Of a DNA stretch of 64,000 nucleotides, positions 2,397 through 41,608 are shown piece by piece. Position numbers and translations under genes: made by a program. The DNA is from Gemmatimonadota bacterium (GTDB lineage Bacteria > Gemmatimonadota > Gemmatimonadetes > Gemmatimonadales > GWC2-71-9). The notes below the pieces were generated by a model. The model saw nothing but the letters and a program-made list of their open reading frames with translations. It ran no database searches and was not told the DNA's origin. The stretch is taken from positions 15 to 64,014 of the forward strand of contig JBDHHP010000010.1 of assembly GCA_039589275.1 (NCBI GenBank), written 5' to 3'. Numbering within the stretch: position 1 is the first letter of the stretch; every line of letters begins with the position of its first letter.

Positions 2397-2768
2397 TCAA
2401 ACGTGCTGGTCAACCAGTATCGGGTTTCCGTCAGGGTCGACTGCGACAAAACTGGCGGGCCCCGTGGTGGCCTCATCGGCCTCGGCTAAAAGTTGCACAC
2501 CTTCCGCTTTCAACTGACGCTGAAGATCGCGCACGTCGGTAAAGGTGTCGAGCTTGCCAGCGTTGCTGTCCCAGCCCGGATTGAAGGTCAACGTGTTCCT
2601 CTCGAACATGCCTTGGAAGAGACCGATCGCGTGCTCGCCGTTTTTCATGATCAGCCAGTTTTGGGAGGCCTCTCCGGCGAAGACCGTGAAGCCAAACTTC
2701 TCGTAGAAGGTTTTCGAAGCCTGAAGATCCTTGACAGCCAAGCTAATCGAGAACGCGCCGAGTTCCAT
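2397..2768 (-). CDS. VOC (glyoxalase/bleomycin-resistance/dioxygenase) family protein
   Basis: [27 protein letters not shown]...[14 protein letters not shown] is a typical VOC fold signature. Start moved to the internal ATG at 2768. Confidence 0.8.
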
Positions 2769-2831
2769 ACCTTGCTCCTTTTGAAAGATGCACAAACGGT
2801 GTCAGCCACCCAAACGGTGCGCTTTCACACA

Positions 2832-3842
2832 TTACACGGTGATGATCACTTTTCCTTTGAGTTCATCCTCGATCATGTGCCGGAGAGCCTCGCGGGTCTC
2901 ACTCAGCGGGTAGGTACTGTCGATGATCGGTGTGATCTTCCCGGCGTCGAGGAGTTCCCTCAGGACGTCCATTGCGTCTGTCCTGCTGGGTATCGAAGAG
3001 CGACCCAGTCGCAGCTGTTTTACGAAGAGTGAGAGGAAGATCAGGCTGAAGAAGCGGGGGAGGAGCCCGAAGAAGCGTTTGCCCGACACCCCAAATCCGT
3101 CATGCCCAATGAGCACGTATCTCCCGCCAGGTTGGAGCGCGCGCTTGCAGGCAGAGAACCGGTGGTTCCCCGGAACATCGAAGATGAGATCGTAGCGAGC
3201 GCCACGCCGGGTGAAGTCCTCCTGGGTGTAATCCATGACCTGATCTGCCCCGAGTGAGCGGAGCATGCTCAGCTTGCTCGTGCTGTCCACGGCCGTCACG
3301 TGCGCGCCGTACGCCTTCGCGACCTGTAGGGCGAGGGAGCCAACGCCGCCGCCAGCGCCGTTGACCAACACCCTCTGCCCAGGCCGTACCAGGCTCGCTC
3401 CGCGAAGGTTCAGTAGGGTGATGAATCCAGAGGTGGGGACGGAGGCGGCCTGCTCGAACGTGACGTTGTCCGGCTTCAGCGCGAGTAAGTCCTGGTGAAC
3501 TGATACATATTCGGCGAATGCGCCGCCGTTGGTCCATTGATTGGTGCGGATGGTCTCGCCGAATACCGCGTCACCCTGCCGGAACTGTGTCACGCTCTTG
3601 CCGACGGACTCGACGATTCCCGCCATGTCCGTGCCGGGGATCGGGTGCTTCGGTTTGAAGACCCCGGGTCCCATCAGACGAACGACATAGGGCTGCCCGG
3701 TCACGACATGCCAGACGTCCGGATGGAGCGAAGCCGCGCGTACCTGCACCAGGACCTCATCATCGCCGACGGCCGGCTTGGGGACTTCGCGGAGGTTTAG
3801 ATCATCGGGAGATCCGTACTTCTTTTGTACAATCGCCTTCAT
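2832..3842 (-). CDS. Medium-chain dehydrogenase/reductase (quinone oxidoreductase / Zn-type alcohol dehydrogenase family)
   Basis: MKAIVQKKYGSPDDLNLREVPKP... with Rossmann motif VLVNGAGGGVGSLALQVAK. ATG 3842 overlaps the GNAT stop codon (ATGA). Confidence 0.85.
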   Translation of the reverse strand: MKAIVQKKYGSPDDLNLREVPKPAVGDDEVLVQVRAASLHPDVWHVVTGQPYVVRLMGPGVFKPKHPIPGTDMAGIVESVGKSVTQFRQGDAVFGETIRTNQWTNGGAFAEYVSVHQDLLALKPDNVTFEQAASVPTSGFITLLNLRGASLVRPGQRVLVNGAGGGVGSLALQVAKAYGAHVTAVDSTSKLSMLRSLGADQVMDYTQEDFTRRGARYDLIFDVPGNHRFSACKRALQPGGRYVLIGHDGFGVSGKRFFGLLPRFFSLIFLSLFVKQLRLGRSSIPSRTDAMDVLRELLDAGKITPIIDSTYPLSETREALRHMIEDELKGKVIITV

Positions 3843-4381
3843 CGCCTCTTCAAGTTCGCGTGTTGAGCAGCCCGCCATGAATCACGTTCAATCGCATAGA
3901 GAGACAGACAGTACCCTCGTAGCGTGACCTCCCCTTCAAACCGCTCTCCAAGGCGCTCAGCTAGTCGGATTGAGCGGCGGTTGTCCGGATCAATCAGGCT
4001 GATCACTCGGTGCCATCCGAGAGGGCCGAATGCATGCGCCAGTGCAGTTCGCGCGGCCTCCAGGGCAAAGCCTCGGCCCCAGTACGGGCGAGCAAGTGTC
4101 CAGGCCAGTTCCCGATCGGGCCAACCCTCCGGAAAGTGGAGGCCGACACGGCCCACCAGAGAGCCGCTTGCCCGCTCCTCCACAGCCCACACGCCGAAAC
4201 CGCGGAGCTGCCAATGGCCGACGAACATCGCCATTTGTCGCCAGGCATCGTCCCGGCTGAGAACCGAGCGGACGCCGATGTAACGCATGACGTCTGGGTC
4301 CGCACACATGGCGGCGTAGGCATCAATGTCGTTCTCTCGAAAGGGCCGGAGCAACAGCCGCTCGGTTTCAAGTGTGAGCAC
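3839..4381 (-). CDS. GNAT family N-acetyltransferase (RimJ/RimL-like)
   Basis: MLTLETERLLLRPFRENDIDAYAAMCADPDVMRYIG... plus WGRGFALEAARTAL is the classic RimJ-like GNAT signature. Confidence 0.85.
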   Translation of the reverse strand: MLTLETERLLLRPFRENDIDAYAAMCADPDVMRYIGVRSVLSRDDAWRQMAMFVGHWQLRGFGVWAVEERASGSLVGRVGLHFPEGWPDRELAWTLARPYWGRGFALEAARTALAHAFGPLGWHRVISLIDPDNRRSIRLAERLGERFEGEVTLRGYCLSLYAIERDSWRAAQHANLKRR

Positions 4382-4414: not shown

Positions 4415-4546
4415 GCACAACGGCTCGGCGCATGAGCTGGTGCACAGACTCACTAGGTGCATGAGCATTTCTGAGTTCATCGATCACACCGTGCGCACAA
4501 ACCGACTACTCCTACCACGCTCAACAGCTTCATTCGCGTTTTAGAC
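4415..4546 (-). repeat. Eroded attC-like site (relic)
   Basis: 132 bp, the same length as the intact family. Left arm GCACAACGGCTCGGCGCATGAGCTG compares with GTCTAACGGACCGGCGCATAAGCTG. Right arm CGCTCAACAGCTTCATTCGCGTTTTAGAC compares with CGTCACGCTTCATGCGCCTGTTAGGC. It lies directly 3' of the SnoaL-like ORF. Confidence 0.45.
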
Positions 4547-4571
4547 AGCTTCGAAAAACCCGCCCAGTAGA

Positions 4572-5072
4572 TCACGGCTGCCTCAGCGGGCGATCTCTGT
4601 TCCTCATTCGCCGTGCGATCTTCCAGGTACCATCCGGCTGACGCTGCAAGATGTTGAGGTGCTTTCCACGGACAGTATCCACAACGGCAGTACCCTTGGG
4701 CTTAATGAACGCAACGTAGGTTCCACGCTCGAATGCCCACTCGCCAAGAACTCGAACTTCCTGCGTCTGAGCCGAGAGCTCGACATCCACGCGCGAAAAG
4801 CGGCGCTCGAACCATGCGCGCAGCGAATCTCGACCAACTATGGATGGACCGTCCGGCCACATATACACGCCGTCCCGCGTAAACCGACTGACCTCGGCCT
4901 CAACATCGCCGTGGTTCACCGCTTCTCCTGCACTCTGCAAGAAGTGATGTACCTCCCTGAGGGCCTGATGTTCTGATAGCCGGCTATCGTCCCCATCGCA
5001 CGCACAGATCACCGCAATAACACACGTGACCACGACTCTGATCGATCGAAGCTGTATAACGACTCCGCGCAT
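4572..5072 (-). CDS. SnoaL-like / DUF4440 (NTF2-fold) lipoprotein
   Basis: Start taken at ATG 5072: MRGVVIQLRSIRVVVTCVIAVICAC (lipobox-like). Then VYMWPDGPSIVGRDSLRAWFERRF...HLNILQRQPDGTWKIARRM, typical of the NTF2-like DUF4440/SnoaL fold. Confidence 0.7.
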   Translation of the reverse strand: MRGVVIQLRSIRVVVTCVIAVICACDGDDSRLSEHQALREVHHFLQSAGEAVNHGDVEAEVSRFTRDGVYMWPDGPSIVGRDSLRAWFERRFSRVDVELSAQTQEVRVLGEWAFERGTYVAFIKPKGTAVVDTVRGKHLNILQRQPDGTWKIARRMRNRDRPLRQP

Positions 5073-5106
5073 GCGCAGCGAACGGACTCTTTTCCAGCTT
5101 CCAGAT

Positions 5107-5185
5107 GCACAACCGAACGTCGATGTTACGCTGCGCATAATCCAACTGCTCCTTCAGCGTTCGCAGTTTCATTCAATTGCTAGGC
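5107..5185 (-). repeat. Short, eroded attC-like relic
   Basis: Bounded by GCACAAC (5107-5113) and GCTAGGC (5179-5185). Inner GCGCATAAT and CAGTTTCATTCAATT segments resemble the family arms. The stop codon of ORF 5180-5860 lies inside the right 7-mer. It is much shorter (79 bp) than the intact copies. Confidence 0.3.
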
Positions 5186-5860
5186 GCCAGTCACTCTGTG
5201 AAGGTTTGCCCGTCCCTGCTTGCCTATCAATTCGATTACCCCGGCTTTTCGCAGACAATACACCATCTTCTGCGCCAGCTGTCTCCTCACAACTATCGCG
5301 TCCGCCAGGTCTCCCGCGGTAAACGTCTCCCAACCTTTGGGGATAAACGCTAGCCAATTTGCGGCGTCCTCGTACGACCTCCGCTCTACTACTTCCAACA
5401 GCCGGCGCTCCTCAATGGCCCACCCTCTCCTACGCCAGTGTCGCTTCCCCTCGTACCGCCTCACCTCTTCCTCCCGTATCATCAGTACTTCCAGCGAGAA
5501 GTTGGGGTCCGTGAGCAGCTGCGGGAAGCTCACCATTTCCCAGAACAGATCCTCCGAACGCCCTGTCTTAGGCGACTTTCGGCGAGTCACCCCGACACTG
5601 TCATCCTTGGCCGGCTTCACAATCCATTTCTCTTTGGCAATCGGATAGATCAACCGAACGCGATGTGAACGAACCAGGTTTATCAGCTTCGACCTGATGG
5701 ACGCGAAGTTGCCAGTCTGGATTTCCAGCAACAGATCATCCCGCACGATATCAATCACAAACCCGTCAACCGCCACTTCGAACTTGTCTCCCGGCTCTGC
5801 GTACCACTCCTTCAGCGACGCGTGAAGCGGCCTTTCGTTGAGCAAACCGATGTGTGACAT
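5180..5860 (-). CDS. Hypothetical protein, PD-(D/E)xK-nuclease-like N-terminus with probable C-terminal winged helix
   Basis: Start taken at ATG 5860 (MSHIGLLNERPLH...); the longer track ORF overlaps the HAD gene. VDGFVIDIVRDDLLLEIQTGNF resembles a D...E-x-Q/K nuclease core. The C-terminus LADAIVVRRQLAQKMVYCLRKAGVIELIGKQGRANLH looks wHTH-like. Assignment is by motif only. Confidence 0.5.
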   Translation of the reverse strand: MSHIGLLNERPLHASLKEWYAEPGDKFEVAVDGFVIDIVRDDLLLEIQTGNFASIRSKLINLVRSHRVRLIYPIAKEKWIVKPAKDDSVGVTRRKSPKTGRSEDLFWEMVSFPQLLTDPNFSLEVLMIREEEVRRYEGKRHWRRRGWAIEERRLLEVVERRSYEDAANWLAFIPKGWETFTAGDLADAIVVRRQLAQKMVYCLRKAGVIELIGKQGRANLHRVTGA

Positions 5861-5913
5861 TGATCCCCCACTGCCCGGGCGACTAGCCACTCTACAATGC
5901 GGGCGATCGCTCT

Positions 5914-7332
5914 TTAGCCAGCCGCACGGCGATTCCCCACCAGCGCGCCGATCCATTTGCGCGCGTCGTCCAATGAGCTGAGCACGCTTGAGGCTGCGCG
6001 CACGGCGGCCTCCGATGGTGGCTTCAAATCTGGCACGCACAACGTCACCATGCCGGCCGCACTCGCCGCCAGGACGCCGGCGTCCGAGTCTTCAAGAGCA
6101 ACACACTCGGCTGGGTCCAGGCCCAGTCGTGCCGCTGCCTCGAGATAGATGTCGGGCGCGGGCTTACCCCGGGTCACTTGCTCGCCCGTGACGATGGCGT
6201 CGAAACGATCGAGGAGACCCGCGCTTCGCAGACTGAGCTCCGTGTAGGCGCCGTCGCTCGACGTCGCAACTGCACTCGAGAGAGCATACTCGTCCAAGAA
6301 CGAGAGAAACGCGAGAAGGCCGGGTTTCGTGGGAATGCCTCCGGCGTTCACGGACGTTCGCCAGAGCTCTGACCACCGCGTTCTAAACCGCGACAACGGA
6401 AACTCCGAGCCAAATTGCTGGATGAGTTCGCGCTCGCAGTGCGAAGTTGGACGACCGATGAACCTCAAATGCGACTGATCATCTAGATCGAATCCCAGTT
6501 CCGCACACGCTTGCTGCCACGCGGCCTTATAGATCGGCTCCGTGTCGAGCATCAGACCATCCATGTCGAGGACGACGGCGCGAATCCCCATATCGGTTTC
6601 TAGGTCGAAGCCTACTGTTCCGTGATTTCGTAGACCCGGATGCTCGCAATGAACGGATTGTCCTGCGCGATCCTTACTAGTCTGGACTACCAAGCGCGAG
6701 TCTCCTCCAACTGGGTTGACTCGGACAACGAGATCCAGCAATTGGTCCAAGACCATGTCGGCATTCTGAATGGCGTCAGGCGGATGTGTGGAAGCAACTG
6801 CTATGACCCGCATTCCGGCGGCCCGAGCTGCGTGAACTCCCACCGGCGTATCCTCGACGACTACACAACCGCTCGCCGGGACTCCCAGTCGTCTTGCCGC
6901 GCACAAGTAGGGCTCGGGGTCCGGCTTCCCTCGAGAGACATCATCGGCGGTTATCAGGGCTGCGGGCTCGGGAAGCCCCACGTGCAGAATCCGCGTCAGC
7001 GCGGTCGTCCGGTTTCCGGAAGTTGCCACTGCCCACGCATCCGCCGGCAGGTTGCTAAGCAGTTCTAGGGCTCCTCGAACCTCGTAGACTCCGGTCGTAT
7101 CCGTTTCTTCTCCGCGCTCTAGCTCGGCGGCCTCAGACTCACAATCCAGGTGAGGTGCTATCGTTGCGATCGTTTCAGCAGTGCGGCGGCCGTGCGCAAC
7201 AGCGAGAAGCGTCTCCACATCGAACCCATGTTTAGCAGCCCATCGATGCCACTGTGCTTCGACACACGCAATGGAGTCGACGAGGACGCCGTCCAGATCG
7301 AACAGAATCGCGTCACAGACCATCTGATTCAT
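5914..7332 (-). CDS. Tandem HAD-HAD fusion hydrolase (two beta-phosphoglucomutase-like HAD-IA modules)
   Basis: Two complete HAD modules in one frame with no stop between them. Module 1: ILFDLDGVLVDS ... SGNR ... GKPDPEPY ... VVEDTPVGVHAARAAG. Module 2: VVLDMDGLMLDT ... TSSD ... GKPAPDIY ... ALEDSDAGVLAASAAG. Confidence 0.8.
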   Translation of the reverse strand: MNQMVCDAILFDLDGVLVDSIACVEAQWHRWAAKHGFDVETLLAVAHGRRTAETIATIAPHLDCESEAAELERGEETDTTGVYEVRGALELLSNLPADAWAVATSGNRTTALTRILHVGLPEPAALITADDVSRGKPDPEPYLCAARRLGVPASGCVVVEDTPVGVHAARAAGMRVIAVASTHPPDAIQNADMVLDQLLDLVVRVNPVGGDSRLVVQTSKDRAGQSVHCEHPGLRNHGTVGFDLETDMGIRAVVLDMDGLMLDTEPIYKAAWQQACAELGFDLDDQSHLRFIGRPTSHCERELIQQFGSEFPLSRFRTRWSELWRTSVNAGGIPTKPGLLAFLSFLDEYALSSAVATSSDGAYTELSLRSAGLLDRFDAIVTGEQVTRGKPAPDIYLEAAARLGLDPAECVALEDSDAGVLAASAAGMVTLCVPDLKPPSEAAVRAASSVLSSLDDARKWIGALVGNRRAAG

Positions 7333-7392
7333 ACAGCGGACCTCACTTGCCCAGGGGCATCGGACATGAGCTGTCCATGCTTCGTGCAGCTG

Positions 7393-7926
7393 TTAGCCTG
7401 CATCGGCACCTTTCCACTCGGCTGTCGGCCTCCCCATCCAGATCCATACCACGTAGTCTGTCAACGGCGGCTCGGCTCCCAACTCACGCAGCCGCCTATT
7501 CATCTGCCCCCGGTGATATGACGAGTGTGACCAGATCTGAAGCAGTGACTCGGCCAGTGTCACCGGCTGTGCTCTCCCCCATCGCTTCACCAGATCCTCA
7601 GCCCACGGAAAGTTGACTTGCCGCTTGAGCATCACGGAGTCGAGGGTCTCCAGAAGTTCGGCGGCCTGCACATAGTAGTCCCGACACCACCGATAGATGG
7701 CCTTGAGATCCAGGAACTCCCCAAGATCTGGGATGTCCAGCTGCTCGCCGCGCCAAACCTGCAGGTAAGCCCACTGCACCTGATGCAGGTGATGGACACA
7801 TTCTCGGATCTGACGGTCGGCGTGAGCTTCTCGGTGCTGTAACAGGGCCGTCCACACAAGCGCGTCCGCCCATTCCATATGGTTCACAAGCTCACGTGGC
7901 TCACTGTGAATCATCTTTCTCTCCAA
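7393..7926 (-). CDS. DinB family protein
   Basis: NHMEWADALVWTALL...HHLHQVQWAYLQVW...SHSSYHRGQMNRRLRELG shows the His-triad spacing of the DinB/YfiT-like four-helix bundle. The stop codon sits inside GGCTAAC (7392-7398). Confidence 0.8.
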   Translation of the reverse strand: MERKMIHSEPRELVNHMEWADALVWTALLQHREAHADRQIRECVHHLHQVQWAYLQVWRGEQLDIPDLGEFLDLKAIYRWCRDYYVQAAELLETLDSVMLKRQVNFPWAEDLVKRWGRAQPVTLAESLLQIWSHSSYHRGQMNRRLRELGAEPPLTDYVVWIWMGRPTAEWKGADAG

Positions 7927-7958
7927 CCCAATTGATGCAGGTTAGCGGCTCGAGGCAG

Positions 7959-8543
7959 CTACCATGGGTTCGGCGCTCCAAACATGGCTCGAACGCTAAA
8001 TGCCTGGCCGATGTGATAGAAGTGATGCGTCAGTACGATGTGTCCTAGGAGCCAACCTTTGGTGTGGCCACCGTAGGCCTCGACAATGTCCTCCGCCACC
8101 GCGCCTCCAGCTCCCTCATCGACGAAAACTCGCCGTAGTCGCTTCTGCGTTAGCTCACCCGCCAGTTCCGGGAGCGGCAAGCCGTCGACCACCGTTACGG
8201 TACGGTTCGTCACCTCGGCCCGATAGGTATCGAGCGCGGGGAGACTGACCTCCTCGCACAACTGCGTCACTTGTGCCTTGGACATGCCCGTCCCGACTTC
8301 CCGACCCAGCACCCGCAGGCGGCTCGGCCATCCGCCCTCATCGAACACTTGGTCCCGATCCGCGAGCAACCGGTTAACACCCACATCCTCACATCGTGCG
8401 ATGTGCCAAAGAATCCAGACGATAGGGTTGAGAGACGGATGCGGCGAGTGCCGCAGCTGATGCTCGGTGAGATCCTTGACGAGGTGCTTGGGGTATTCGC
8501 GAAACCCCTGGTAACGCTCGAAGAAAAGCTGCTTCGCGTCCAT
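7959..8543 (-). CDS. DinB-superfamily protein
   Basis: LNPIVWILWHIARCEDV ... GHIVLTHHFYHIGQAFSVRAMFG is a DinB_2-like signature. Confidence 0.7.
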   Translation of the reverse strand: MDAKQLFFERYQGFREYPKHLVKDLTEHQLRHSPHPSLNPIVWILWHIARCEDVGVNRLLADRDQVFDEGGWPSRLRVLGREVGTGMSKAQVTQLCEEVSLPALDTYRAEVTNRTVTVVDGLPLPELAGELTQKRLRRVFVDEGAGGAVAEDIVEAYGGHTKGWLLGHIVLTHHFYHIGQAFSVRAMFGAPNPW

Positions 8544-8589
8544 TACATACCGCTCCTCGGCAGTGGTTTCGGTGCGGCGTCACCGGGCC

Positions 8590-8722
8590 GTCTAACGTCC
8601 CGGCGCATACGCTGCGGACTGCTCCTCAGCGGCTGTGCCGATGTCAGTCTCATCACTGCCATTCCTTTCTTCCCGACTCTACGTGCACCAGGTGCCCGTA
8701 ATTCTCCATGTGCCTGTTAGCC
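8590..8722 (-). repeat. attC-like recombination site
   Basis: Plus strand reads GTCTAAC-GTCCC-GGCGCATACGCTG ... CTCCATGTGCC-T-GTTAGCC (133 bp). The stop codon of the methyltransferase ORF (8717-8719) lies inside the core 7-mer. Confidence 0.8.
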
Positions 8723-9424
8723 AGCCACTCCCTGACGTTCAACAGAACCGTGAATGAAGAACTCAGTTGTCTGCGTCATCTTGCCTATCCAGCCAAGCCG
8801 TCCTAGGCGACGCTCCAGTTCTGCTGCATCATGGAACACCTTGATCACAGTGAATTGACGACCGTCGTTGAGTCGCCGTTCGACTGTGCCGCGAGTGGTA
8901 CTGGCCAGACTATGGTCTACGGCAGTGGACTCTGGGGTAAAGCGACTATCGACGAGAAAAACGCGACCACCCGGCTTGAGGGCCTGTTCAACGAGACACC
9001 AGAAATCCCCGAAGCGATTCGGTGGAACATGTGAAAGCCAGAAGCCGAAGAACACGAAGTCGTAGCGACGTTTCGGCTCCCACGTGAAGATATCTGATAC
9101 GACATACTCGACTCTCGGATCTTCAAGCCGGCTGCGATTGATCACGATGGCTTCAGGTGCTGCATCCACTGCTGTGACGGTGACCGCGCGCTTGACGAGT
9201 TGTTCGGTCCATATGCCAGTGCCACACGCATACTCCAAGACATCGCCACGCGGATCACAGTGTTCGAGTGCCTCTCGGACCTCCTTGACCTCGCCGAACC
9301 ATCGACGCTTGTGTTCTAGTCCTCGGTCATATCTCCCCTGACGCAAGAACCACTCATCATATTCGCCAGCACGTTCCCGATAGTACCGTATCTGCTCGTC
9401 GAGGAGGATTCGATCGCTATCCAT
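8717..9424 (-). CDS. Class I SAM-dependent methyltransferase
   Basis: Start taken at ATG 9424 (MDSDRILLDEQIRYYRERAGEYDEWF). Motif I is VLEYACGTGIWTEQL, followed by VDAAPEAI and GGRVFLVD. Confidence 0.8.
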   Translation of the reverse strand: MDSDRILLDEQIRYYRERAGEYDEWFLRQGRYDRGLEHKRRWFGEVKEVREALEHCDPRGDVLEYACGTGIWTEQLVKRAVTVTAVDAAPEAIVINRSRLEDPRVEYVVSDIFTWEPKRRYDFVFFGFWLSHVPPNRFGDFWCLVEQALKPGGRVFLVDSRFTPESTAVDHSLASTTRGTVERRLNDGRQFTVIKVFHDAAELERRLGRLGWIGKMTQTTEFFIHGSVERQGVAG

Positions 9425-9456
9425 ATCAGACAACTGGCTGGTTAGCTTGGCTGACC

Positions 9457-10518
9457 TCACCCGCGGTCTTTGTGTTTTGGGTGGTGTTTCATCGTTTTCA
9501 TCGCGGTCTTCCACTCAGACACTGCGGCTGCGCGAGCGCGGGGATCGGTCTTCCGCGTCTCATATGCGGCTTCGGCCCGGAGCTTCCTAAAGCTGTTCAA
9601 GCGCTCTGGGGCCAAGTCTCCGGTTTCTATCGCCTCTTGGACTGCGCAGTTCGGCTCTCCCTCGTGTCGGCAATCCCGGAACCGACAACCATGGGAAAGC
9701 TCCTCGATGTCCGGGAAAGCGTGGTCCAGTCCCTCCTCCAAAGCCCAGACGCGCAGCTCTCTGATCCCAGGCGTGTCGAGGAGGAGCGCCCCACCGGGGA
9801 TCCTGTACAAGTCCCGCCGGCTCGTGATATGTCGACCCTTTCGATCACTGCCGCGTACTTCACCGGTCGCGGCAACGGTTTCTTCGGAGAGCAGATTGAC
9901 CAATGTGGACTTTCCGACTCCGGATGGCCCGAGAAGGGAGACTGTGGATCCTGGTTCCAGGGTGTTTCGGAGGGTTTGGACACTCTCACTATCCCTGGCG
10001 CTCACGATCCGGATAGGCACGCCGAGTGCGACGGTCTCAACCTGCGATACCCATGCTTCCAGGTCGTCCGTCAAATCCGACTTGGTGAGAATGATCTCCG
10101 GAGAGGCGCCGCTGTCCCACACCACAGCCAAATAGCGTTCGAGACGCCGTGGGTTGACATCCAAGTCCAGGCCGTGAACGACCCAGACCTTGTCCACGTT
10201 TGCCGCCAATAGCTGTTCAGACTTGCCTGTGCCCGCCGCCCCTCTGGATATCCAAGACCGGCGCGGAAACACAGCCCGGATTGACCATGGGTCGTCTGGC
10301 ATAGGACCCGGCTCAGCAAGGACCCAATCCCCGATCACCGGGTAGCGATCTTTACCTGAAGCGGACGGAAACCGCGCAGTTTCCGGGCCCGAGTCTGTTC
10401 GCACCGACCAGCTCGCTCGGTCCTGGCCCACAATGCGGGCAACGCTTGAGGAATCGGCACCTAGCTGTTCAGCTTGTTGTGCCCACTGGTCATCCCAACC
10501 CCATTCCCTCAATGTCAT
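9457..10518 (-). CDS. rsgA: Ribosome small-subunit-dependent GTPase A (RsgA/YjeQ-like)
   Basis: Circularly permuted GTPase order: TKSDL (G4), then GPSGVGKSTLVNLL (G1), then DTPG (G3). C-terminal zinc knuckle CRFRDCRHEGEPNCAV. Confidence 0.85.
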   Translation of the reverse strand: MTLREWGWDDQWAQQAEQLGADSSSVARIVGQDRASWSVRTDSGPETARFPSASGKDRYPVIGDWVLAEPGPMPDDPWSIRAVFPRRSWISRGAAGTGKSEQLLAANVDKVWVVHGLDLDVNPRRLERYLAVVWDSGASPEIILTKSDLTDDLEAWVSQVETVALGVPIRIVSARDSESVQTLRNTLEPGSTVSLLGPSGVGKSTLVNLLSEETVAATGEVRGSDRKGRHITSRRDLYRIPGGALLLDTPGIRELRVWALEEGLDHAFPDIEELSHGCRFRDCRHEGEPNCAVQEAIETGDLAPERLNSFRKLRAEAAYETRKTDPRARAAAVSEWKTAMKTMKHHPKHKDRG

Positions 10519-10546
10519 CCGTCCACCCTACCTAATCTCAAGGTCA

Positions 10547-10572
10547 GCTCAACGGACCGGCGCATTGGCTGC
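10547..10572 (-). repeat. Extra, orphan attC arm (half-site duplication)
   Basis: GCTCAACGGACCGGCGCATTGGCTGC duplicates the arm GGCTAACGGTTCGGCGCATAAGCTGC found 60 bp away. No matching second arm is present. Confidence 0.5.
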
Positions 10573-10606
10573 ATGCGCTGACTCACTGGCCGCAGACTCG
10601 GTAGCT

Positions 10607-10738
10607 GGCTAACGGTTCGGCGCATAAGCTGCGAGCCGCTCTTCACCAGCAACCTCGATCTCGGTTCAATCATTGTCGCTTTCTTGCCTCAAACCAACGG
10701 GCACCGCGCGCCCGACATGCTTCATGCGCCTGTCAGGT
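10607..10738 (-). repeat. attC-like recombination site
   Basis: GGCTAAC-GGTTC-GGCGCATAAGCTG ... GCTTCATGCGCC-T-GTCAGGT (132 bp). One core has a T-to-C change. Confidence 0.7.
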
Positions 10739-10787
10739 GGCCCAAGCCTCCCTTCATTCCGACGACTACGAAAGCCCCACTCTATAC

Positions 10788-11294
10788 TCACGGGCTACTC
10801 GACTGTCGTGTCAAAGGAACGCGATTGAAGGGACAACTGTATACTCGACACTGCTTGCAGAAGTGAAGCAACTGGCCCGAATACCACGCACCGGCAGCGA
10901 TCACAAACGCAACCAGAAGGCCTATGTGTGAAACCAGCCAAAACACCGGATAAGTTGGTATGAGAATGAATATTACTAGGAACCGAGACTTTTCGACGTT
11001 GCTGAGGGGCGTGCTCTTTGTTCTCTTGATCAGCCACCTCGTCAGACTCGGGGGTGCTTGAAGGCAATCGCCGTACACATGGAGATGGGGGCACCTTGGA
11101 CAATTTAGGTGCCTCATTACGATCCCTGGAATTCCATACCAAAATATCACGATGTATGGAAGGACCCAGGGCCAATCTTCAAGCAGAATACCGACAGTAC
11201 CCAGGATGCCCATGGCCCAAAACGAAAGCTGAGCGTAGGCCTTTTCCCAGACAGTGAATCCTTCTGCAAGTTTGCACTCAGGCTCTCGGTTCAT
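10788..11294 (-). CDS. Hypothetical polytopic membrane protein with two Cys clusters
   Basis: 168-aa ORF with 4-5 hydrophobic segments. Motifs: NCPRCPHLHVYGDC and FCKQCRVYSCPF. Visibly more A+T-rich than neighbouring DNA. No family recognised. Confidence 0.55.
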   Translation of the reverse strand: MNREPECKLAEGFTVWEKAYAQLSFWAMGILGTVGILLEDWPWVLPYIVIFWYGIPGIVMRHLNCPRCPHLHVYGDCLQAPPSLTRWLIKRTKSTPLSNVEKSRFLVIFILIPTYPVFWLVSHIGLLVAFVIAAGAWYSGQLLHFCKQCRVYSCPFNRVPLTRQSSSP

Positions 11295-11500
11295 GCTGGG
11301 CCTCCGAGTTCATGCTACCAGTTTGCCTTCGATGCTTTTCTGATATCCAGTGGAACAAGCAACCCGCGGGCCGCCTAACGACCCTGCGCATAAGCTGCGA
11401 ACGTAATCTCAAATGCTGCATGAACACCTCGGCATTCAATGACCTTGCCAAGCCCACAAATCAACTGCTCCTGTCGCGTTCGTCACGCTTCATTTGCCTG

Positions 11501-12126
11501 ATACTCATAAAGGCCTCCTCTGGATCTTACTAGCGAAGTAAGCTCTGGGCTCGTGAACCATTAGACCGAGGAGACCTTTATGAGATTCTACACCAAGCAC
11601 CACAGACACTACTGCGGCATCGATCTCCATGCTCGCTCCATGTACCTCTGCATCCTCGACGAGGCTGGAACAGTCCTGCTGCACCGCAACCTGCGTGCAA
11701 AGCCGGATGCCTTCCTAAAAGCTGTAGCTCCATACCGGGAAGATCTAGACCACGATACAGAGTGCGTCCGAGACACAAACACCCGGAACCCCGGCGCTTG
11801 ATTCGACACCCACTTCCGCTCCAAACATTCGGCGATGCGCGCAACGTGTGTTCTGCCCCTCCCCTTTCCCGAGCCTGCAGCTAACTGAACCACGGATGAG
11901 GTCGACGCTTGAGTAGGACGGCACGAGGGCACAGATGAGTTTCTAGGCCACAGGAGGGAGGTACTACATCCCCCTGCACTTCGTGAGCCTCGATAGGTGT
12001 TGGGTGCAGAACACCCTGTCCTGCACCAGCAACTGAAATGAAGTCAGAACCAGCGTCGGGCATCCAACGGGAACCATACCCCGTCTTGTCTACTTACGCC
12101 CGCTTGACAGAGGAGGCCTTATAAAT
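11501..12126 (+). mobile_element. Internally deleted IS110-family (IS1111-like) element inserted in an attC
   Basis: Subterminal inverted repeats AAGGCCTCCTCTG (11510-11522) and CAGAGGAGGCCTT (12108-12120). Carries a 73-codon transposase N-terminal fragment. At about 0.6 kb it is far shorter than an intact element of this family. Confidence 0.65.
11580..11801 (+). pseudogene. IS110-family transposase, N-terminal fragment
   Basis: MRFYTKHHRHYCGIDLHARSMYLCILDEAGTVLLHRNLRAKPDAFLKAVAPYREDL matches the start of the DEDD-type IS110 transposase domain. The frame then degenerates and stops. A GGAG Shine-Dalgarno lies upstream. Confidence 0.75.
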
Positions 12127-12148
12127 GTTAGGCGGCGCGGTGTTCATA

Positions 12149-12733
12149 TCAGTATTGCAGCGACTGCAGAGTCGACGCGAGGTCCCAGCTGTCTTGATTT
12201 CGGACATACAGAACAAAGACGCCCCGGCCACACAACAGGCCACAGAGGGCGTCCACTGCCACAAGTGCGCTATCACCGGTCGGAGCGAAGCCCACGCGGG
12301 AAACGTAATAAGTGGTCCCGACGTCCGGCGTCTGTTCGGTCGGTGTGTCGACCAGCTGCACACGCCAGCCTGGCACGCGCAACGCTTCGTCTAGTAGCCG
12401 GGCATGCCGGTTCGCCCGCCAGTAGCTGGCGACGAGAGTCGGATAGCGAGTCCGTTCGAGGCCAAAGCCATCGATGGCCGCAGTCCAAGCAGCAGAGTCA
12501 GGAAACTCCGCAGTTCGTGCCTGAAGTCTGCTATGGAGTCGAAGGACTCCAATTGAGTCTGGCTTACCGGCGAACTCTGAGAGTGCCAACGCGGCAACCT
12601 GTAGCTCTACATCGGTCGTTCCTGGCGGGTCTGCCGACGGCGAGTAGCTACATCCCGCGAGCACTGCACCGAGCAACAAGGCAGTCAGACGTTGCACCGA
12701 ACGCGGGTCGCACAGCCTAACGGACCGGCGCAT
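12149..12733 (-). CDS. Hypothetical lipoprotein (cassette-borne)
   Basis: Best start is ATG 12733: MRRSVRLCDPRSVQRLTALLLGAVLAGCS (lipobox LAGC). That ATG lies inside the upstream attC. No family recognised. Confidence 0.55.
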   Translation of the reverse strand: MRRSVRLCDPRSVQRLTALLLGAVLAGCSYSPSADPPGTTDVELQVAALALSEFAGKPDSIGVLRLHSRLQARTAEFPDSAAWTAAIDGFGLERTRYPTLVASYWRANRHARLLDEALRVPGWRVQLVDTPTEQTPDVGTTYYVSRVGFAPTGDSALVAVDALCGLLCGRGVFVLYVRNQDSWDLASTLQSLQY

Positions 12734-12846
12734 ATGCTGCGGGCAGCTCCCTACCAGCCAATCAGGTCTTAGTCCAAACACTGTTTCACCCTCGTCCCAA
12801 ATCAACGGGCACCACGTGCCCGTCACGCTTCATGCGCCTGTTAGGC
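12715..12846 (-). repeat. attC-like recombination site
   Basis: GCCTAAC-GGACC-GGCGCATATGCTG ... internal hairpin GGGCAC-CAC-GTGCCC ... CGCTTCATGCGCC-T-GTTAGGC (132 bp). The terminal 7-mers are perfectly complementary. Confidence 0.85.
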
Positions 12847-12865
12847 AGATCGCAACACGCAGTGA

Positions 12866-13528
12866 CTACCACCGAACTACCAGCGGAACTGCAGGCCGCA
12901 TATCCAATGACTCCCGTGCACTAGAGTCGTCAAGCTCAACTTCCAACACGGGAACAGAGTCCTCACCGACGCTGACGTTGACAAGACCAAGCGCACAGAA
13001 CGCTGTGAACTCATCTGACGGCTCGTCAACTTGGCCAAGTGTGAGTGAAACCTCTGTCACACGACGCGCACCATTGGGGTGCGTCGGACATCCGTATCCA
13101 GGACCTGATTTCCACGGGAGAACAAAGAGCAACGGCTCAGCTAGTCGGTCAGAGTTGTTGCCGGTTGGAATCGCCGCACCATTGGGCAAATACGGTGGGC
13201 GGTATGCCCAAGTACTAAAGGGGATCGACGACTTACTGTCTGCAGCGCATCGGAATCCAAATCCGAAGGGAAGCGCAGTCTGCTCGGGATCTGCGCGTTG
13301 TGCTAAACACGTCCGCCGTATCGCGGTTGACTCAGCTTCGCGCCGGTCTTCCAGCCACAGGAACTCGACATACGAATCCTCGAAGAACACTCCTGTGCTC
13401 GCAGTACCCTGACCGGGATGACGATTTCGCTCTCCCTCCTTGAACCCAGCTCGCACGAGAGTCGCCATTTCGGGAGCACCATACGTTACGACTACGAACA
13501 TGTGATCTAGTTCAAGCAAGGCCTTCAC
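12866..13528 (-). CDS. Glyoxalase-like (VOC-superfamily) domain protein
   Basis: LELDHMFVVV...AGFKEGERNRHPGQGTASTGVFFEDSYVEFLWL resembles the glyoxalase-like domain family. Start is GTG, 25 nt from the attC core. Confidence 0.65.
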   Translation of the reverse strand: MKALLELDHMFVVVTYGAPEMATLVRAGFKEGERNRHPGQGTASTGVFFEDSYVEFLWLEDRREAESTAIRRTCLAQRADPEQTALPFGFGFRCAADSKSSIPFSTWAYRPPYLPNGAAIPTGNNSDRLAEPLLFVLPWKSGPGYGCPTHPNGARRVTEVSLTLGQVDEPSDEFTAFCALGLVNVSVGEDSVPVLEVELDDSSARESLDMRPAVPLVVRW

Positions 13529-13552
13529 CCCTGTCGATGCTAAGGCGAAGCC

Positions 13553-13685
13553 GTCTAACGGACAGGCGCATAAGCTGTGGGCTTCTCCTCACCAACAACT
13601 CCGCTTTTCGTTCAATCACTGTCACTTCCTCGCCCCAGAATCAACGGGCACCACGCGCCCGTCACGCTTCATGCGCCTGTTAGGC
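13553..13685 (-). repeat. attC-like recombination site
   Basis: GTCTAAC-GGACA-GGCGCATAAGCTG ... CGCTTCATGCGCC-T-GTTAGGC (133 bp). Confidence 0.85.
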
Positions 13686-13693
13686 AGCAGTCA

Positions 13694-13987
13694 TCAACGG
13701 TCCAGTGCACCATCGTCAATGCGCCTTGGTTCGCTCCTCTTTGACTGCAGTAATAGCTCCGTCGTATCAAGTCGCTCCTGAACTTCAACTAGCTCCTCGC
13801 GCACAGCTTCGAGTTCAGCGGCCAGCCGCTCCAGCCGGGCGCTGTCAGCTCGCCCATGGCGGAGGCGCTCGATCAATGCACGGCCAATCTCTGTTCTCGA
13901 AACCAGCGCAGCGCTACCTCCGACGATTACAAGTGGGACGCCGACGGTTAGGATGATGTCCGGCAGGAGGTAGAGGAAATTGAACAA
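13694..13987 (-). CDS. Small membrane-anchored coiled-coil protein (hypothetical)
   Basis: 97 aa. N-terminal TM segment FLYLLPDIILTVGVPLVIVGGSAALV, then heptad-like RLERLAAELEAVREELVEVQERLD. No family recognised. Confidence 0.5.
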   Translation of the reverse strand: MFNFLYLLPDIILTVGVPLVIVGGSAALVSRTEIGRALIERLRHGRADSARLERLAAELEAVREELVEVQERLDTTELLLQSKRSEPRRIDDGALDR

Positions 13988-14080
13988 GGCTCCTCCATGG
14001 ATCGCTTCAGCTTGGCTTACTCCGACATTGCCATATCGGCGGGTCCTGTGCCCCCAAATCTGCTGCTCTGAGCAACAGCT

Positions 14081-14212
14081 GTCTAACGGACCGGCGCATA
14101 AGCTGCGGGCAACTCCTCACCAACAACTCTGATCTCAGTTCAAGCATCGCCTTTTCTAGCCCCAAATCAACCAGGCATCCCGCGCCCGTCACGCTTCGTG
14201 CGCCTGTTAGCC
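14081..14212 (-). repeat. attC-like recombination site
   Basis: GTCTAAC-GGACC-GGCGCATAAGCTG ... CGCTTCGTGCGCC-T-GTTAGCC (132 bp). Confidence 0.85.
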
Positions 14213-14240
14213 TGCAGTCAGGCTATGTACTTGACATGTC

Positions 14241-14269
14241 TTGACTTACACAGCCCGACACCATAGAAT
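14241..14269 (+). promoter_or_regulatory. Near-consensus sigma70-type promoter (TTGACT-N17-TAGAAT) pointing away from the cassettes
   Basis: -35 TTGACT at 14241-14246, a 17-nt spacer, -10 TAGAAT at 14264-14269. A second TTGACA lies 10 bp upstream. Confidence 0.35.
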
Positions 14270-14287
14270 TCTGGTTGGAAAAAGGTA

Positions 14288-14340
14288 CCCCCCTGGTAAC
14301 AAGAGCCCATGGGGCTCTTCCGCAAGGATAGCCAGGGGGG
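14288..14340. terminator. Nested GC-rich hairpin, probable bidirectional terminator
   Basis: Outer stem CCCCCCTGG/CCAGGGGGG; inner stem AAGAGCCC-ATG-GGGCTCTT. On the minus strand it is followed by TACCTTTTT, directly 3' of the DUF3800 ORF. On the plus strand it is followed by TCAGCTTTTC. Confidence 0.55.
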
Positions 14341-14357
14341 TCAGCTTTTCTGGCCAC

Positions 14358-15005
14358 CTAGTAGAAGTTGTCTGAGCCACCCGCGAAGATCTCAAACTCA
14401 CTCCTCACAAAGCGTGAGATCATCCTGTACGGCCGAGTCTCCCCATCCTTCCACTTCTTGTATATGGCCCAATTGCAGTAGTCAGCAGCCTGTAAGCATG
14501 CGTGCGAACCGGACGAATGATGCAGAACCGAAAAGGGGCGCCGGCCAAGATTGCCACGGATGTACGATTTGAACGCCTTCTCAATAGCCCTTCTGCGCTT
14601 CTTCACCGGAAGCGTGTCAGTGATCACGACAACACGTTCGGCAGGATCGTTGTATCGGTTGAACACGTATCGCAACAAGTAGTTCGCGAATTGTGGATAG
14701 AACCGGATCGGATCGTGTAAAACCGGGTTCGCCTTCCGTTTTTTTACAATCACGGCGTCGAAATCAAAGTCCCCAACATCGGCTAGTATCTGGAAGACCT
14801 GGTCGCGCACGCTCTGGCGATCTTCACTTGCATGGAACTCCTCGATTTCCACCCCTTGCGTGATGAGATCGTAGCGAAGGTCACTCAGCGGGCGCAGGAG
14901 AGAGGCTGGCTCTCGCGTGGTGAGCGCGCCAAACACAATGTACTTCGAGCCGCTTGGCGAAAAGTTCAGATCGCCCGACTCGTCAAAGAACAAGAAGACA
15001 CTCAC
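14358..15005 (-). CDS. DUF3800-like protein
   Basis: The recognisable region starts at VSVFLFFDESGDLNF and ends at HACLQAADYCNWAIYKKW (DESG ... QxAD pattern of DUF3800). Start placed at in-frame GTG 15005. The track ORF extends to 15512, but those 169 extra residues are low-complexity and contain no internal ATG. Confidence 0.6.
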   Translation of the reverse strand: MSVFLFFDESGDLNFSPSGSKYIVFGALTTREPASLLRPLSDLRYDLITQGVEIEEFHASEDRQSVRDQVFQILADVGDFDFDAVIVKKRKANPVLHDPIRFYPQFANYLLRYVFNRYNDPAERVVVITDTLPVKKRRRAIEKAFKSYIRGNLGRRPFSVLHHSSGSHACLQAADYCNWAIYKKWKDGETRPYRMISRFVRSEFEIFAGGSDNFY

Positions 15006-15564
15006 TTGGTATTGATCCGAACTTGCATCCTCCTGATATGCTGCAGGCCAACTCGTTGTATCCTGCGCAGCCCCGCCCCTGACCCTGCAGCATACTCCGC
15101 ATAACACCACATCGGCGATGCGAGAGGCTGCAGAAGACGCTGGATAATGTGCTGCATGAAATCCGACCGTTATCGATCGAAAACAGGGCTCTGGGAGGGC
15201 GACTGATCCGATGCTAACATCTGCTACCGCGGGACTATCCGCTAGTGCGGTCCGGGGACACCATATGTCGTTCTTTGGGACACCGATCGGTCGTTCCGGC
15301 CCGACAGCGACCGAGAAGGTCCGCCGGTGACGAACCTCCCGCGCTACCAGGGCCCAGCAGACCGACTCCTTTCCTTCAAGGGGCAACGCGGCCCATGGCC
15401 GCTCGGCGATACTGCTGAGAGCCCCCAAGCTCTCACCGCCAAGTGAGTGCGAGGATTCCCGACCCACACTCTGCGACCCGGACGAGTCAACCATCTGAAT
15501 ACTCGCGGCCAACCGCGCCGGAACGCATCACCGCGCTGCCCCGAAAGACGCCGTGATAAGACAG

Positions 15565-16179
15565 CTACAGCACCAGCGACACCACGTTGCTGGGCTCTCC
15601 CTCACCGCTCTTGTTAACAGCCACCACCTGGTACAACAGCTCCACACCACGCTGCTGCCCGCTCAGCACGACTTCACTCTCGATCGACATACCTGCATCG
15701 CTCCACGAGCGCGTGTCCTTGGTGCGATACTGCACCCGGTACGCAGCCACGCTCCCGCCCGACGACGGCGCCTTCCAGTCCAGTATGCACCATCCCTCCC
15801 CCTGCCCCACCAGCTCCAGACTGCGCACCTGACCCGGTACCTCCATGATCGTGCCGCTCTTGCGGCCACCCCAACCGAGCTGCTTGAGCTTCTCGGGCTC
15901 GTGCCTAACCGTGTTCTCGGCGTAGCGTAGATCCGCCTTCATCAGATCAACCAGCTTCTCGAACGCCTCGTCCTTCACCGCGTACTTCTCCCTGGCGGCG
16001 CCGTCCGCCGCCAACGCCGCGTCCTTGGCGGCGTCATACTCCGCCAGCGCGGCCTCGATCTCCTGTGGTGGAACCGGAGGCGCGGGAAACTCCTCCGTAC
16101 CTTCCGTGAGTCCCGTGATCATCCGCCGAGCCAGTGCGGCTGCTTCAGCCTCGCTCTTTGGGAATCTCGCCATGGTCAC
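15565..16179 (-). CDS. Fibronectin type III domain protein with alpha-helical N-terminal half
   Basis: C-terminal VPGQVRSLELVGQGEGWCILDWKAPSSGGSVAAYRVQYRTKD...LLYQVVAVNKSGEGEPSNVVSLVL is a clear FN3 pattern. Confidence 0.7.
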   Translation of the reverse strand: MTMARFPKSEAEAAALARRMITGLTEGTEEFPAPPVPPQEIEAALAEYDAAKDAALAADGAAREKYAVKDEAFEKLVDLMKADLRYAENTVRHEPEKLKQLGWGGRKSGTIMEVPGQVRSLELVGQGEGWCILDWKAPSSGGSVAAYRVQYRTKDTRSWSDAGMSIESEVVLSGQQRGVELLYQVVAVNKSGEGEPSNVVSLVL

Positions 16180-16625: not shown

Positions 16626-16774
16626 AAAGCCCGACTTGCAGGTCAAGTTGACCGACTCATAGCTCGAGGAAGCCGACTTGCGCTGGTGGGGAGGCTGACT
16701 CACGGCGAGAGGAAGCTGACTTACAGCTAGAGCAAGCTGGAGATCATCGAGAGGTGGCTCACTATCGTGGAGGG
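16626..16774. repeat. Seven degenerate tandem repeats with 21-22-bp period
   Basis: Units: AAAGCCCGACTTGCAGGTCAA / GTTGACCGACTCATAGCTCGAG / GAAGCCGACTTGCGCTGGTGGG / GAGGCTGACTCACGGCGAGAG / GAAGCTGACTTACAGCTAGAG / CAAGCTGGAGATCATCGAGAG / GTGGCTCACTATCGTGGAGGG. Confidence 0.6.
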
Positions 16775-16810
16775 AAGAGAGACCCCTTCCCCGTTTCCCC
16801 TGTTCCTTGT

Positions 16811-16880
<70 letters not shown>

Positions 16881-38704: not shown

Positions 38705-38727
38705 GCTGTTGTCTCTCTTCACAGCGA

Positions 38728-41465: not shown

Positions 41466-41608
41466 TCCGTTGGTGGTGCGAGCGGGCACGTCTCCTGGCT
41501 TCGGGCATCGGCTCGCCTTCCCGGTTTCCCAGTGGCGACTGAGCCGAGGTTCAATCCCTCTTACAGTGGCGGGGCCGCGCCGGATTCACACCGGCTTCCG
41601 TAGGCCAC
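41466..41608 (-). promoter_or_regulatory. Cobalamin (B12) riboswitch
   Basis: Minus strand reads GGAAGCCGGTGTGAATCCGGCGCGGCCCCGCCACTGTAAGAGGG...GTCGCCACTGGGAAACCGGGAAGGCGAGCCGATGCCCGAAGCCAGGAGACGTGCCCGC. This contains the GGTG-GAATCC, GCCACTG and GGGAAGGC elements and the B12 box AGCCAGGAGAC-TGCC. It lies directly 5' of the binding-protein gene. Confidence 0.85.

Follow-up and report, generated by a model that had tools for sequence, protein, structure and literature searches.

What kind of element is formed by a run of small, co-oriented genes, each followed by a palindrome of about 132 nt, when no integrase gene stands beside it? This question is raised by positions 2.4-14.2 kb of a 64,000-nt stretch of chromosomal DNA from a Gemmatimonadota bacterium (contig JBDHHP010000010.1, positions 15 to 64,014; hereafter the window), in which the palindromes have the ends of integron attC sites. 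The locus is very probably an integron-derived chromosomal cassette array without a local integrase, i.e. a cluster of attC sites lacking an integron integrase (CALIN), a reading that had also been put forward, as one of two possibilities, in a first-pass annotation made from the sequence alone. It is supported by a covarying hairpin, by arrays of the same site family in 29 metagenome contigs, by linkage of the family to the integrase gene intI and to attI in two contigs (L028 and L063), by a Glyoxalase_3 cassette held in common with the second of these and by the lack of intI in the window itself.

Repeat finding, pattern search and alignment recovered five intact copies of the repeat and one split by a 626-bp insert, all inside 8590-14212 and identical with the six that had originally been listed, together with four further degenerate or partial copies (A, B, C and E; the copies are lettered A to J and their positions are given in Table 1). 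The left motif CTAACN6GCGCAT, part of an architecture that had been described as common to the six, has exact matches in the window solely at 8592, 10609, 11375, 12717, 13555 and 14083, which are exactly these copies. The right motif CTTCATGCGCCNGTTAG has seven matches with no more than three mismatches, compared with 0.42 expected by chance, and all of them are within 4528-14210. In the remaining ~50 kb of the window no copies of the family were found by either motif search or by a relaxed structural scan, and the latter revealed no other attC types above the background of Markov-shuffled controls. An initial structural finder demanded a perfect 7-bp L box; it matched only H and I in the window and had zero matches in L036, L038 and L028, three integron-bearing loci considered below.

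The ends of copies J, I, H and D are G(C/G/T)CTAAC ... GTTAG(A/G)C and those of F are ACCTGAC ... GTTAGCC, and the proposed fit of these terminal 7-mers to the integron core consensus RYYYAAC/GTTRRRY holds in the window copies and in 46 distinct members of the family. Copies J, I, H and F share 74-82% mutual identity over their full length, so that the central ~80 nt, previously regarded as variable, are constrained; between copies overall, identity is 59-82%. Copy-to-copy identity is higher than this in the Vibrio cholerae repeats (VCR). Successive copies from J to D start 528-2017 bp apart. All ten copies and remnants sit 3' of co-oriented minus-strand open reading frames (ORFs), with a gap of 0-49 nt from stop codon to R'' and of ~18-93 nt from R' to the next start codon. 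In three cases the stop codon is located within the 7-mer core (8717-8719, GGCTAAC; 7393-7395, GGCTAAC; 5180-5182, GCCTAGC). Both the placement relative to ORFs and the three internal stops had been correctly recognised at the outset.

The sense-strand consensus of the family begins on the 5' arm with G(Y)CTAAC - A GGCG - CAT - [G] - AAGC(G)TG - [N] - 5-7-bp stem and continues through ~60-90 nt to stem' - CAGCTT - ATG - CGC(C/A) + 5 nt - GTTAG(R)C. The structure was tested across the 46 distinct family members because the folding energies of single copies only modestly beat those of shuffled sequences. Paired cells reached 84.9%, versus 25-38% with the partners slid by one to three columns, and changes on both sides were seen in 13 of the 27 pairs; none of 500 shuffles attained the observed values. 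Conservation is 90% or more in columns 5-7 and 73-75, which pair in 41-45 of the 46 members. The hairpin is conserved, and this is backed by compensatory covariation rather than by sequence identity alone. In addition, the L-box pairs covary between attC types of the same integrons, with the combinations GGCGCAT/ATGCGCC, AGCGGTT/AACCGC, AGCCCAT/ATGGGC, AGCGCTT/AAGCGC, AGCAAAT/ATTTGC and AGAGTTT/AAACTT.

The architecture was compared with that of 14 class 1 attC sites extracted from plasmids (aadA1, aadB, aacA4, VIM-2, cmlA1, dfrA17 and others). The class 1 register is R'' 7 + 5 + 3 + bulge + 6 + bulge on the 5' arm and 6 + 3 + 5/6 + R' 7 on the 3' arm, and the 5' arm of the family follows the same register, as 7 + AGGCG + CAT + G + AAGCTG + N. 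attC sites have two extrahelical bases, ~9 and ~16 nt away from the R box and separated by ~6 bp, which on the class 1 bottom strand are typically G and T (PMC7439510). The family bulges lie ~9 and ~16 nt from the R box, 6 bp apart, on the ORF-sense 5' arm like those of class 1; the sense-strand bulge G gives a bottom-strand C, as it does in the VIM-2, estX, cmlA1 and dfrA17 sites. The true extrahelical bases are better read as the G that follows CAT and another unpaired base, six pairs inward. The arms had initially been described as separated from the cores by spacers of 5 versus 1 nt; in the class 1 register, the spacers are better taken as 5 and 9 nt long with short GGCG/CGCC pairing inside them (3-4 potential pairs). 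The family resembles class 1 sites in its RYYYAAC/GTTRRRY ends, 5-nt 5' spacer, 3-bp L-box start, bulge, 6-bp helix and second unpaired base, and differs from them in a 9-nt rather than 5-6-nt 3' spacer, a much longer terminal structure and an extra bulged G in window copies. Its total length is near the upper end of known attC sizes.

The site family is not private to this locus, contrary to what had been supposed, since a single pattern scan found it in 29 metagenome contigs from many samples. Scanning of 185,579 species-representative genomes with the attC pattern gave one further match, in a Gemmatimonadota bacterium metagenome-assembled genome (MAG; L006), and the family is therefore not an abundant genome-wide repeat. 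With relaxed matching, these 30 further contigs contain 54 family copies, co-oriented within each contig and spaced 474-1846 bp apart, and 33 of 41 cases have an ORF of 60 aa or more terminating at R''. A tblastn search with the window cassette proteins revealed no shared cassettes in loci L004-L035.

Two contigs connect the family directly with an integrase. The intI of L028 is frameshifted and truncated where the contig ends, and its two fragments give TIGR02249 matches of E 2e-50 and 1.6e-31; on the same strand, after ~230 bp, come a DinB-like cassette with its stop codon within R'' and then a family attC, with 77% identity to window copy G and 75% to copy A. The IntI of L063 is full-length, scoring 387 bits with TIGR02249 (cut-off 265), and its gene is followed, in this order, by an attI core (TCCATTATGA-GTTAGCT), a cassette with a methyltransferase gene, one with a Glyoxalase_3 gene and a family attC; the attC of the methyltransferase cassette also has the family architecture, with covarying helices (AGCAAAT/ATTTGC, CACCTG/CAGGTG). 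The Glyoxalase_3 protein of the window shows 77% identity to that of L063 (220/220 aa, E 1e-115), and the DNA of the cassette is 75% identical over a 764-nt stretch that starts at the end of one attC, spans the gene and reaches into the next attC. Upstream, the cassette is preceded by the methyltransferase in L063 and by a 97-aa ORF in the window. With gene and site shared and the neighbours different, this is therefore the same cassette in different arrays, one of which is a complete integron.

The closest named IntI relative, at 72% identity, is an 'integron integrase [Gemmatimonadales bacterium]' (loci L036 and L038). Methyltransferase homologues likewise bear the name Gemmatimonadales, and together with the IntI relative, L006 and the shared attC family they point indirectly to this phylum. 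L036 and L038 agree in their chromosomal surroundings, in intI, in four GAGGGATTAGGC repeats and over ~430 bp as far as ...CCATTATCTGTT/RGGC (slashes within motifs mark the point of exchange or breakage), past which their cassettes differ. The divergence is located exactly at the GTT of the attI core and, judged from the sequences, is the mark that attI x attC insertion leaves. The crossover core of attI is CCATTATNNG/TTR in complete relatives and is conserved as CCATTATNN-GTTR in Gemmatimonadota-type integrons, with the cognate attI region ending CCATTATGA-GTTAGCT. Direct repeats of the form (G)GATTAGG(C/T), two to four in number, are present just downstream of intI (L036 11010-11075, L038 8225-8290, L028 3640-3700, L063 1385-1415). 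attI1 has IntI-binding direct repeats, and those seen here look like repeats of this kind. In L028, L063, L036 and L038, intI is co-oriented with the cassettes and attI is downstream of the intI stop codon. Treponema 'atypical' integrons likewise have an intI transcribed toward attI (PMC3607928) and so resemble these four relatives in layout, although the phylum and the attC sequences differ and the likeness applies to the relatives only, the window being without intI.

No integrase or remnant of one was detected in the window. A tblastn search with IntI1 (query 100% identical to plasmid IntI1) gave no match; 60 IntI homologues gave a best E of 0.023 by tblastn, and their profile a best E of 0.13 against six frames of the 64 kb. 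Pfam found no tyrosine recombinase in 50 of the longest ORFs of the window, whereas for five long ORFs (49.5-53.6 and 58.5-64.0 kb) coverage came from the six-frame IntI search only. Within this coverage, the searches agree with the original statement that the 64 kb have no tyrosine recombinase ORF. An attI-like CCATTATNNGTTR core was not found in the window either, and the arrangement of a complete integron, in which intI and attI adjoin the first cassette, is not seen there. Instead, upstream of copy J there is a DUF3800 gene with a hairpin, followed by fn3, PadR and MacB/FtsX permease genes, and beyond the permeases mostly core genes (ClpB, SelB, RecO, MetK, AdoHcyase, PtsI, HPr kinase and a riboflavin operon). 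A CALIN is defined by two or more attC sites that share a strand and are no further than 4 kb apart, with intI absent from the surrounding 4 kb (PMC4889954, PMC9024848); with no intI in any frame of the window, the locus therefore falls under this definition.

The extent of the array is informed by sister MAG contigs (JBDH... series; JGI samples 3300041077-85), of which three were aligned and are 99.7-99.8% identical to the window from 2387 rightwards. Gene and cassette order is identical in all six public contigs that carry the flanking fn3 gene, which come from several samples. Positions 1-2794 of the window match L004/L005 (esterase, glyoxalase, amino-acid permease) at 99.7%, and the sequence from 2387 onwards matches L001-L003 (the array); the switch occurs inside the glyoxalase gene 2397-2768, which is a hybrid of two paralogues with 93.6% mutual identity, the overlap being 2387-2794. 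Homologous recombination may have produced a genuine deletion at this junction; alternatively, the MAG assembly is chimeric here. Three more family attC sites extend the array left of 2387 in the sister contigs, followed by 10 kb or more of small genes with the same orientation in which no recognisable sites were found, and the array thus goes on beyond 4415, the limit that the first-pass annotation had implied. In L062 (10800-20663), ~20 more small co-oriented genes with spacers of 15-160 nt are present past the last recognisable attC, encoding glyoxalases, a methyltransferase, HAD, TfoX_C and DUF6265 proteins and unknowns; this stretch may be an older part of the array with decayed sites. 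Several public contigs end in or at the array (L044 just past fn3, L045 just past the 97-aa cassette and L043 just past the lipoprotein cassette), as is expected if repeats or strain differences break assembly.

A number of observations weigh against the identification as a CALIN. The folding energies of single copies are weakly better than those of shuffles, with z from -0.1 to -3.3 and one copy at +0.5, and G-T wobble pairs, 58 on the sense strand versus 37, give no indication of the folding strand. Spacers of 5 nt (AGGCG) versus 9 nt (CGCC/A + 5) are not the unpaired spacers of ~5 and 5-6 nt expected of attC, and the window subfamily J/I/H/F has the additional bulged G inside the 6-bp helix (AAGC-G-TG). 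There is no recognisable attC between DinB_2 and DinB, between the HAD and DUF8091 genes or among the GNAT, alcohol dehydrogenase and glyoxalase genes, and no cassette presence/absence differences were seen among the near-identical public contigs. Moreover, the repeats fare poorly with covariance models. Three proxy attC models were built from 12 mostly short class 1 sites and are not the IntegronFinder model; R1 contained the real central parts, R2 had the central parts masked and R3 consisted of R box, spacers and L box only. Every window copy remained below 8.6 bits with all three proxies, i.e. undetected, an outcome that had been named beforehand as grounds for rejecting the attC interpretation. 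The 130-nt family members in metagenome contigs were weak (9-17 bits, E 0.06-10), with ends and strand correct. As controls, held-out class 1 sites (dfrA12, arr-3) scored 28-41 bits, and the short attC sites of Gemmatimonadota-type integrons scored 12-39 bits on the right strand (L036 29-39, L028 ~24, L038 12-19). The proxies are judged too narrow to outweigh the intI linkage, and their failure is not taken as a refutation because of the 12 mostly short training sites and the direct connection of the family to intI and attI; the caveat is a genuine one all the same.

These weaknesses leave room for other explanations. The array might be the distal or displaced part of a functional sedentary integron, the intI of which is elsewhere in the genome, outside the window or on a different contig of the MAG, and the cassettes of which are reshuffled in trans. 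The MAGs are fragmented, several contigs end inside the array and the array of the sister contigs runs on as described; in addition, five of the sites are undamaged, related metagenomes contain IntI genes of the matching clade, and CALINs can arise when rearrangements part attC sites from intI (PMC8618304). However, in this lineage intI sits right before the first cassette, a position occupied here by DUF3800, fn3 and PadR genes and ~47 kb of mostly core genes, around half of the sites are degenerate and cassette order does not vary among the six public contigs, which makes a displaced functional integron unlikely, if far from negligible. The hairpins could alternatively act as RNA, as terminators, mRNA-stabilising 3' stem-loops or cis-regulatory elements: they are directly 3' of ORFs on the sense strand, where G-T wobble is slightly commoner, and covariation alone cannot tell RNA from single-stranded DNA. 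Against this, no U-tract follows the stem and the repeats have no match in Rfam, which is itself without an attC family; the terminal 7-mers and asymmetric bulges would be purposeless in a terminator, and both the intI/attI linkage and cassette boundaries exactly at GTT in the relatives fit DNA recombination. RNA as the basis of the family is very improbable, and any RNA-level effect of attC hairpins may be a side effect rather than the primary function.

It is more improbable still that the repeats are merely attC-like, being palindromes of the repetitive extragenic palindromic (REP) type or small non-autonomous transposons such as miniature inverted-repeat transposable elements (MITEs). They are indeed palindromic and intergenic, with a centre conserved within subfamilies, they go unscored by the proxy attC models, and the insertion sequence (IS) family IS1111, to which the insert in copy G appears related, has some members that target REP sequences too (PMC11187229). 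Nevertheless, the explanation is already largely refuted by zero copies in the other ~50 kb of the window, strict co-orientation in all 30 contigs, family members right after intI/attI in two independent contigs, RYYYAAC/GTTRRRY ends with stop codons inside them, a whole cassette (gene and site) common to the window and a complete integron, and the single match among the representative genomes. Scatter away from the 3' ends of ORFs, as might be expected of such elements, is not observed within the window, where copies are confined to 4.4-14.2 kb and are all 3' of ORFs.

How an integrase-free CALIN of this type would relate to an active system can be outlined. In a complete integron of this lineage, intI precedes the cassettes and points the same way as they do; IntI would bind the folded bottom strand of attC (corresponding to the plus strand of the window) and cut the conserved triplet of the R box, at top-strand G/TT. 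Cassettes would be excised by attC x attC recombination and inserted at attI by attI x attC recombination. The sites in the window have the architecture required for recombination, yet are without intI or attI, with approximately half of them decayed or truncated and one disrupted by an IS remnant. We infer from sequence that IntI could recombine these particular sites, which strand it would use and that the array is at present inactive. The array is most likely a sedentary remnant, for the most part frozen, which only an IntI encoded at another place in the genome could rearrange; this view is based on the decayed sites, the IS-broken site and the same order in all six public contigs.

In comparison with known systems, the locus resembles described CALINs in having attC sites on a single strand at distances below 4 kb and no neighbouring intI, and its six good and four remnant sites are near the reported mean CALIN size of ~6 attC (PMC4889954; PMC9024848). 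The decayed sites also fit the view of CALINs as degraded integrons. It is unlike them in having been identified via family homology and intI linkage in relatives, not by the IntegronFinder model. With sedentary chromosomal integrons such as those of Vibrio (VCR) and Xanthomonas (PMC11023631, PMC12444791) it shares homogeneous, lineage-shared attC sites of ~130 nt and a chromosomal array composed largely of unknown or accessory genes, and it differs from them in lacking an adjacent intI and in its host phylum. An array outside Vibrio- and Xanthomonas-type hosts, which had seemed noteworthy from the genomic background, is less surprising given earlier reports of integrons from Gemmatimonadota (PMC8618304). 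Much is known of integrons and CALINs, and the locus is mildly unusual, on account of its long, part-paired 3' spacer, its misfit to models trained on class 1 sites and the co-oriented intI of its complete relatives.

It can be suggested, tentatively and with some doubt, that the attC sites of Gemmatimonadota-type integrons form a class with a structure of its own, which would have co-evolved with an IntI clade transcribed toward attI. The features of such a class would be a long, part-paired 3' spacer, a bottom-strand C as the first extrahelical base and a terminal structure of ~90 nt. Class 1-trained models give these sites scores no higher than noise, and therefore such arrays could be systematically under-counted; if so, this would apply to sediment and soil metagenomes and MAGs, and the Gemmatimonadota cassette reservoir would be larger than surveys show. 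The family, with its covariation-backed structure, is a concrete test case of whether lineage-specific sites escape the standard models, and the locus adds a well-documented array to the short list of Gemmatimonadota integron elements, with matching complete integrons from metagenomes.

Table 1. Features of the cassette array and its upstream flank in window coordinates, listed in cassette orientation (descending coordinates)
Feature	Position	Strand	Remarks
Upstream flank	14213-16179	-	fn3 protein 15565-16179; DUF3800 protein 14358-15005; hairpin 14278-14350
attC J, intact	14081-14212	-	First recognisable site; sense strand GGCTAAC-A-GGCGCAC-G-AAGC...GCTT-ATGCGCC-GGTCC-GTTAGAC
Cassette ORF, 97 aa	13694-13987	-	No Pfam match; stop 8 nt ahead of attC I
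attC I, intact	13553-13685	-	
Glyoxalase_3 cassette gene, 220 aa	12866-13528	-	77% identical to second cassette of complete integron L063
attC H, intact	12715-12846	-	R box pairs 7/7
Putative lipoprotein cassette ORF	12149-12697	-	Translation VQRLTALLLGAVLAGCS...; lipobox judged by eye
attC G, outer end of R'' core (GCCTAA/)	12127-12133	-	Severed by IS remnant
IS110/IS1111-family remnant, 626 bp	11501-12126	+	Subterminal inverted repeats and 73-aa ORF
attC G, remainder	11373-11500	-	77% identical to intI-proximal attC of L028
Membrane-protein cassette ORF, 168 aa	10788-11294	-	No Pfam match; 51.1% GC
attC F, intact	10607-10738	-	R'' degenerate, ACCTGAC
attC E, partial	10545-10585	-	3' half only (...CAGCCAATGCGCCGGTCCGTTGAGC); 21 nt past attC F
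Two-gene cassette	8717-10518	-	RsgA-type GTPase 9457-10518 and S-adenosylmethionine (SAM) methyltransferase 8717-9460; stop/start overlap; methyltransferase stop TAA within R'' of attC D
attC D, intact	8590-8722	-	Most divergent
DinB_2 and DinB	7393-8543	-	DinB_2 7959-8543; DinB 7393-7914, stop within R'' of remnant C
attC remnant C	7333-7398	-	5' part only; GGCTAAC-A-GCTGCAC-G-AAGCATGG...
Double HAD hydrolase and DUF8091 protein	5180-7332	-	HAD 5914-7332; DUF8091 5180-5860; stop TAG within R'' GCCTAGC of copy B
attC B, degenerate	5054-5185	-	
SnoaL/DUF4440 cassette gene	4572-5033	-	Probable start GVTG... at 5033, past attC B
attC A, degenerate	4415-4546	-	75% identical to intI-proximal attC of L028
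GNAT, zinc alcohol dehydrogenase and glyoxalase	2397-4381	-	GNAT 3839-4381; dehydrogenase 2832-3842; glyoxalase 2397-2768; co-oriented with array

The insert that splits attC G carries inverted repeats in subterminal position (A(T)AAGGCCTCCTCTG), and its 73-aa ORF (11580-11801) shows a weak match to the beginning of DEDD_Tnp_IS110 (40 aa, E 7e-4, 19.8 bits versus a cut-off of 29). It is inserted between the G and the TT of the plus-strand GTTAG of the site, without target duplication. Some IS1111-family members target one end of attC, and some also target REP sequences (PMC11187229); as far as the account given there extends, the IS1111-attC group includes ISKpn4 and ISPst6 (Tetu & Holmes 2008; Post & Hall 2009, via PMC11187229). 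On that account, the insert is like the group in its subterminal inverted repeats, DEDD start, position at an attC end and lack of duplication, and unlike it in being a mere remnant with a weak transposase match below the Pfam cut-off. In the sister contig L001 there is an indel relative to the window inside the IS remnant (window 11860-11951).

Pfam assigns the cargo to DinB, DinB_2, methyltransferase, Glyoxalase_3, GNAT, SnoaL, double HAD hydrolase, DUF8091 and RsgA-type GTPase proteins, in agreement with the functions that had been guessed from the translations and with the HAD hydrolase, DUF8091 protein and RsgA-type GTPase as additions. The RsgA-type ribosome-biogenesis GTPase homologue (Pfam E 5e-45) is unusual as cassette cargo and may be a paralogue with another role. 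The GC content of the cassettes is 51-62%, compared with 60.8 +/- 2.2% for the core part of the window; the enrichment in A+T that had been noticed holds for some of them, e.g. the membrane-protein cassette and the methyltransferase (55.0% GC). The real start of the putative lipoprotein is ~18 nt past attC H, as a longer ORF from 12826 would overlap the site. Overall, the cargo is typical of environmental cassettes and resistance genes are absent from it; the relevance of the locus is therefore to surveys of integron diversity and not to clinical questions.

In the upstream flank, the hairpin just past the DUF3800 stop codon is a 19-nt near-perfect inverted repeat; it has an Rfam DUF3800-IX match below threshold (23 bits versus a gathering score of 36.8, E 0.41) and is unrelated to the attC repeats. 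The real start of the DUF3800 gene is apparently GTG at 15005 (MSVFLFFDESGDL). The fn3 protein belongs to a size-conserved 202-aa family with 50-60% identity in several phyla, whose members are often on short contigs or beside transposases, with an upstream gene-free stretch of at least 0.3 kb in each example examined (L040, L046-L048). This gene was considered as a marker of integrons, since a 48.5%-identical copy is 1.2 kb from intI in L040, but three other homologues are not near intI and the idea was rejected. The gene-free stretch between PadR and fn3 contains ~12 tandem heptamers of the CGAAC(A/G)T type (16800-16880) and four to five direct repeats AAGTC(A/G)GC(T/C)TCC, ~21 nt apart (16630-16745). 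Elsewhere in the window, a cobalamin riboswitch (41468-41638, minus strand, 78.9 bits) precedes an operon encoding a periplasmic binding protein, an ABC ATPase and a TonB-dependent receptor (36737-41377).

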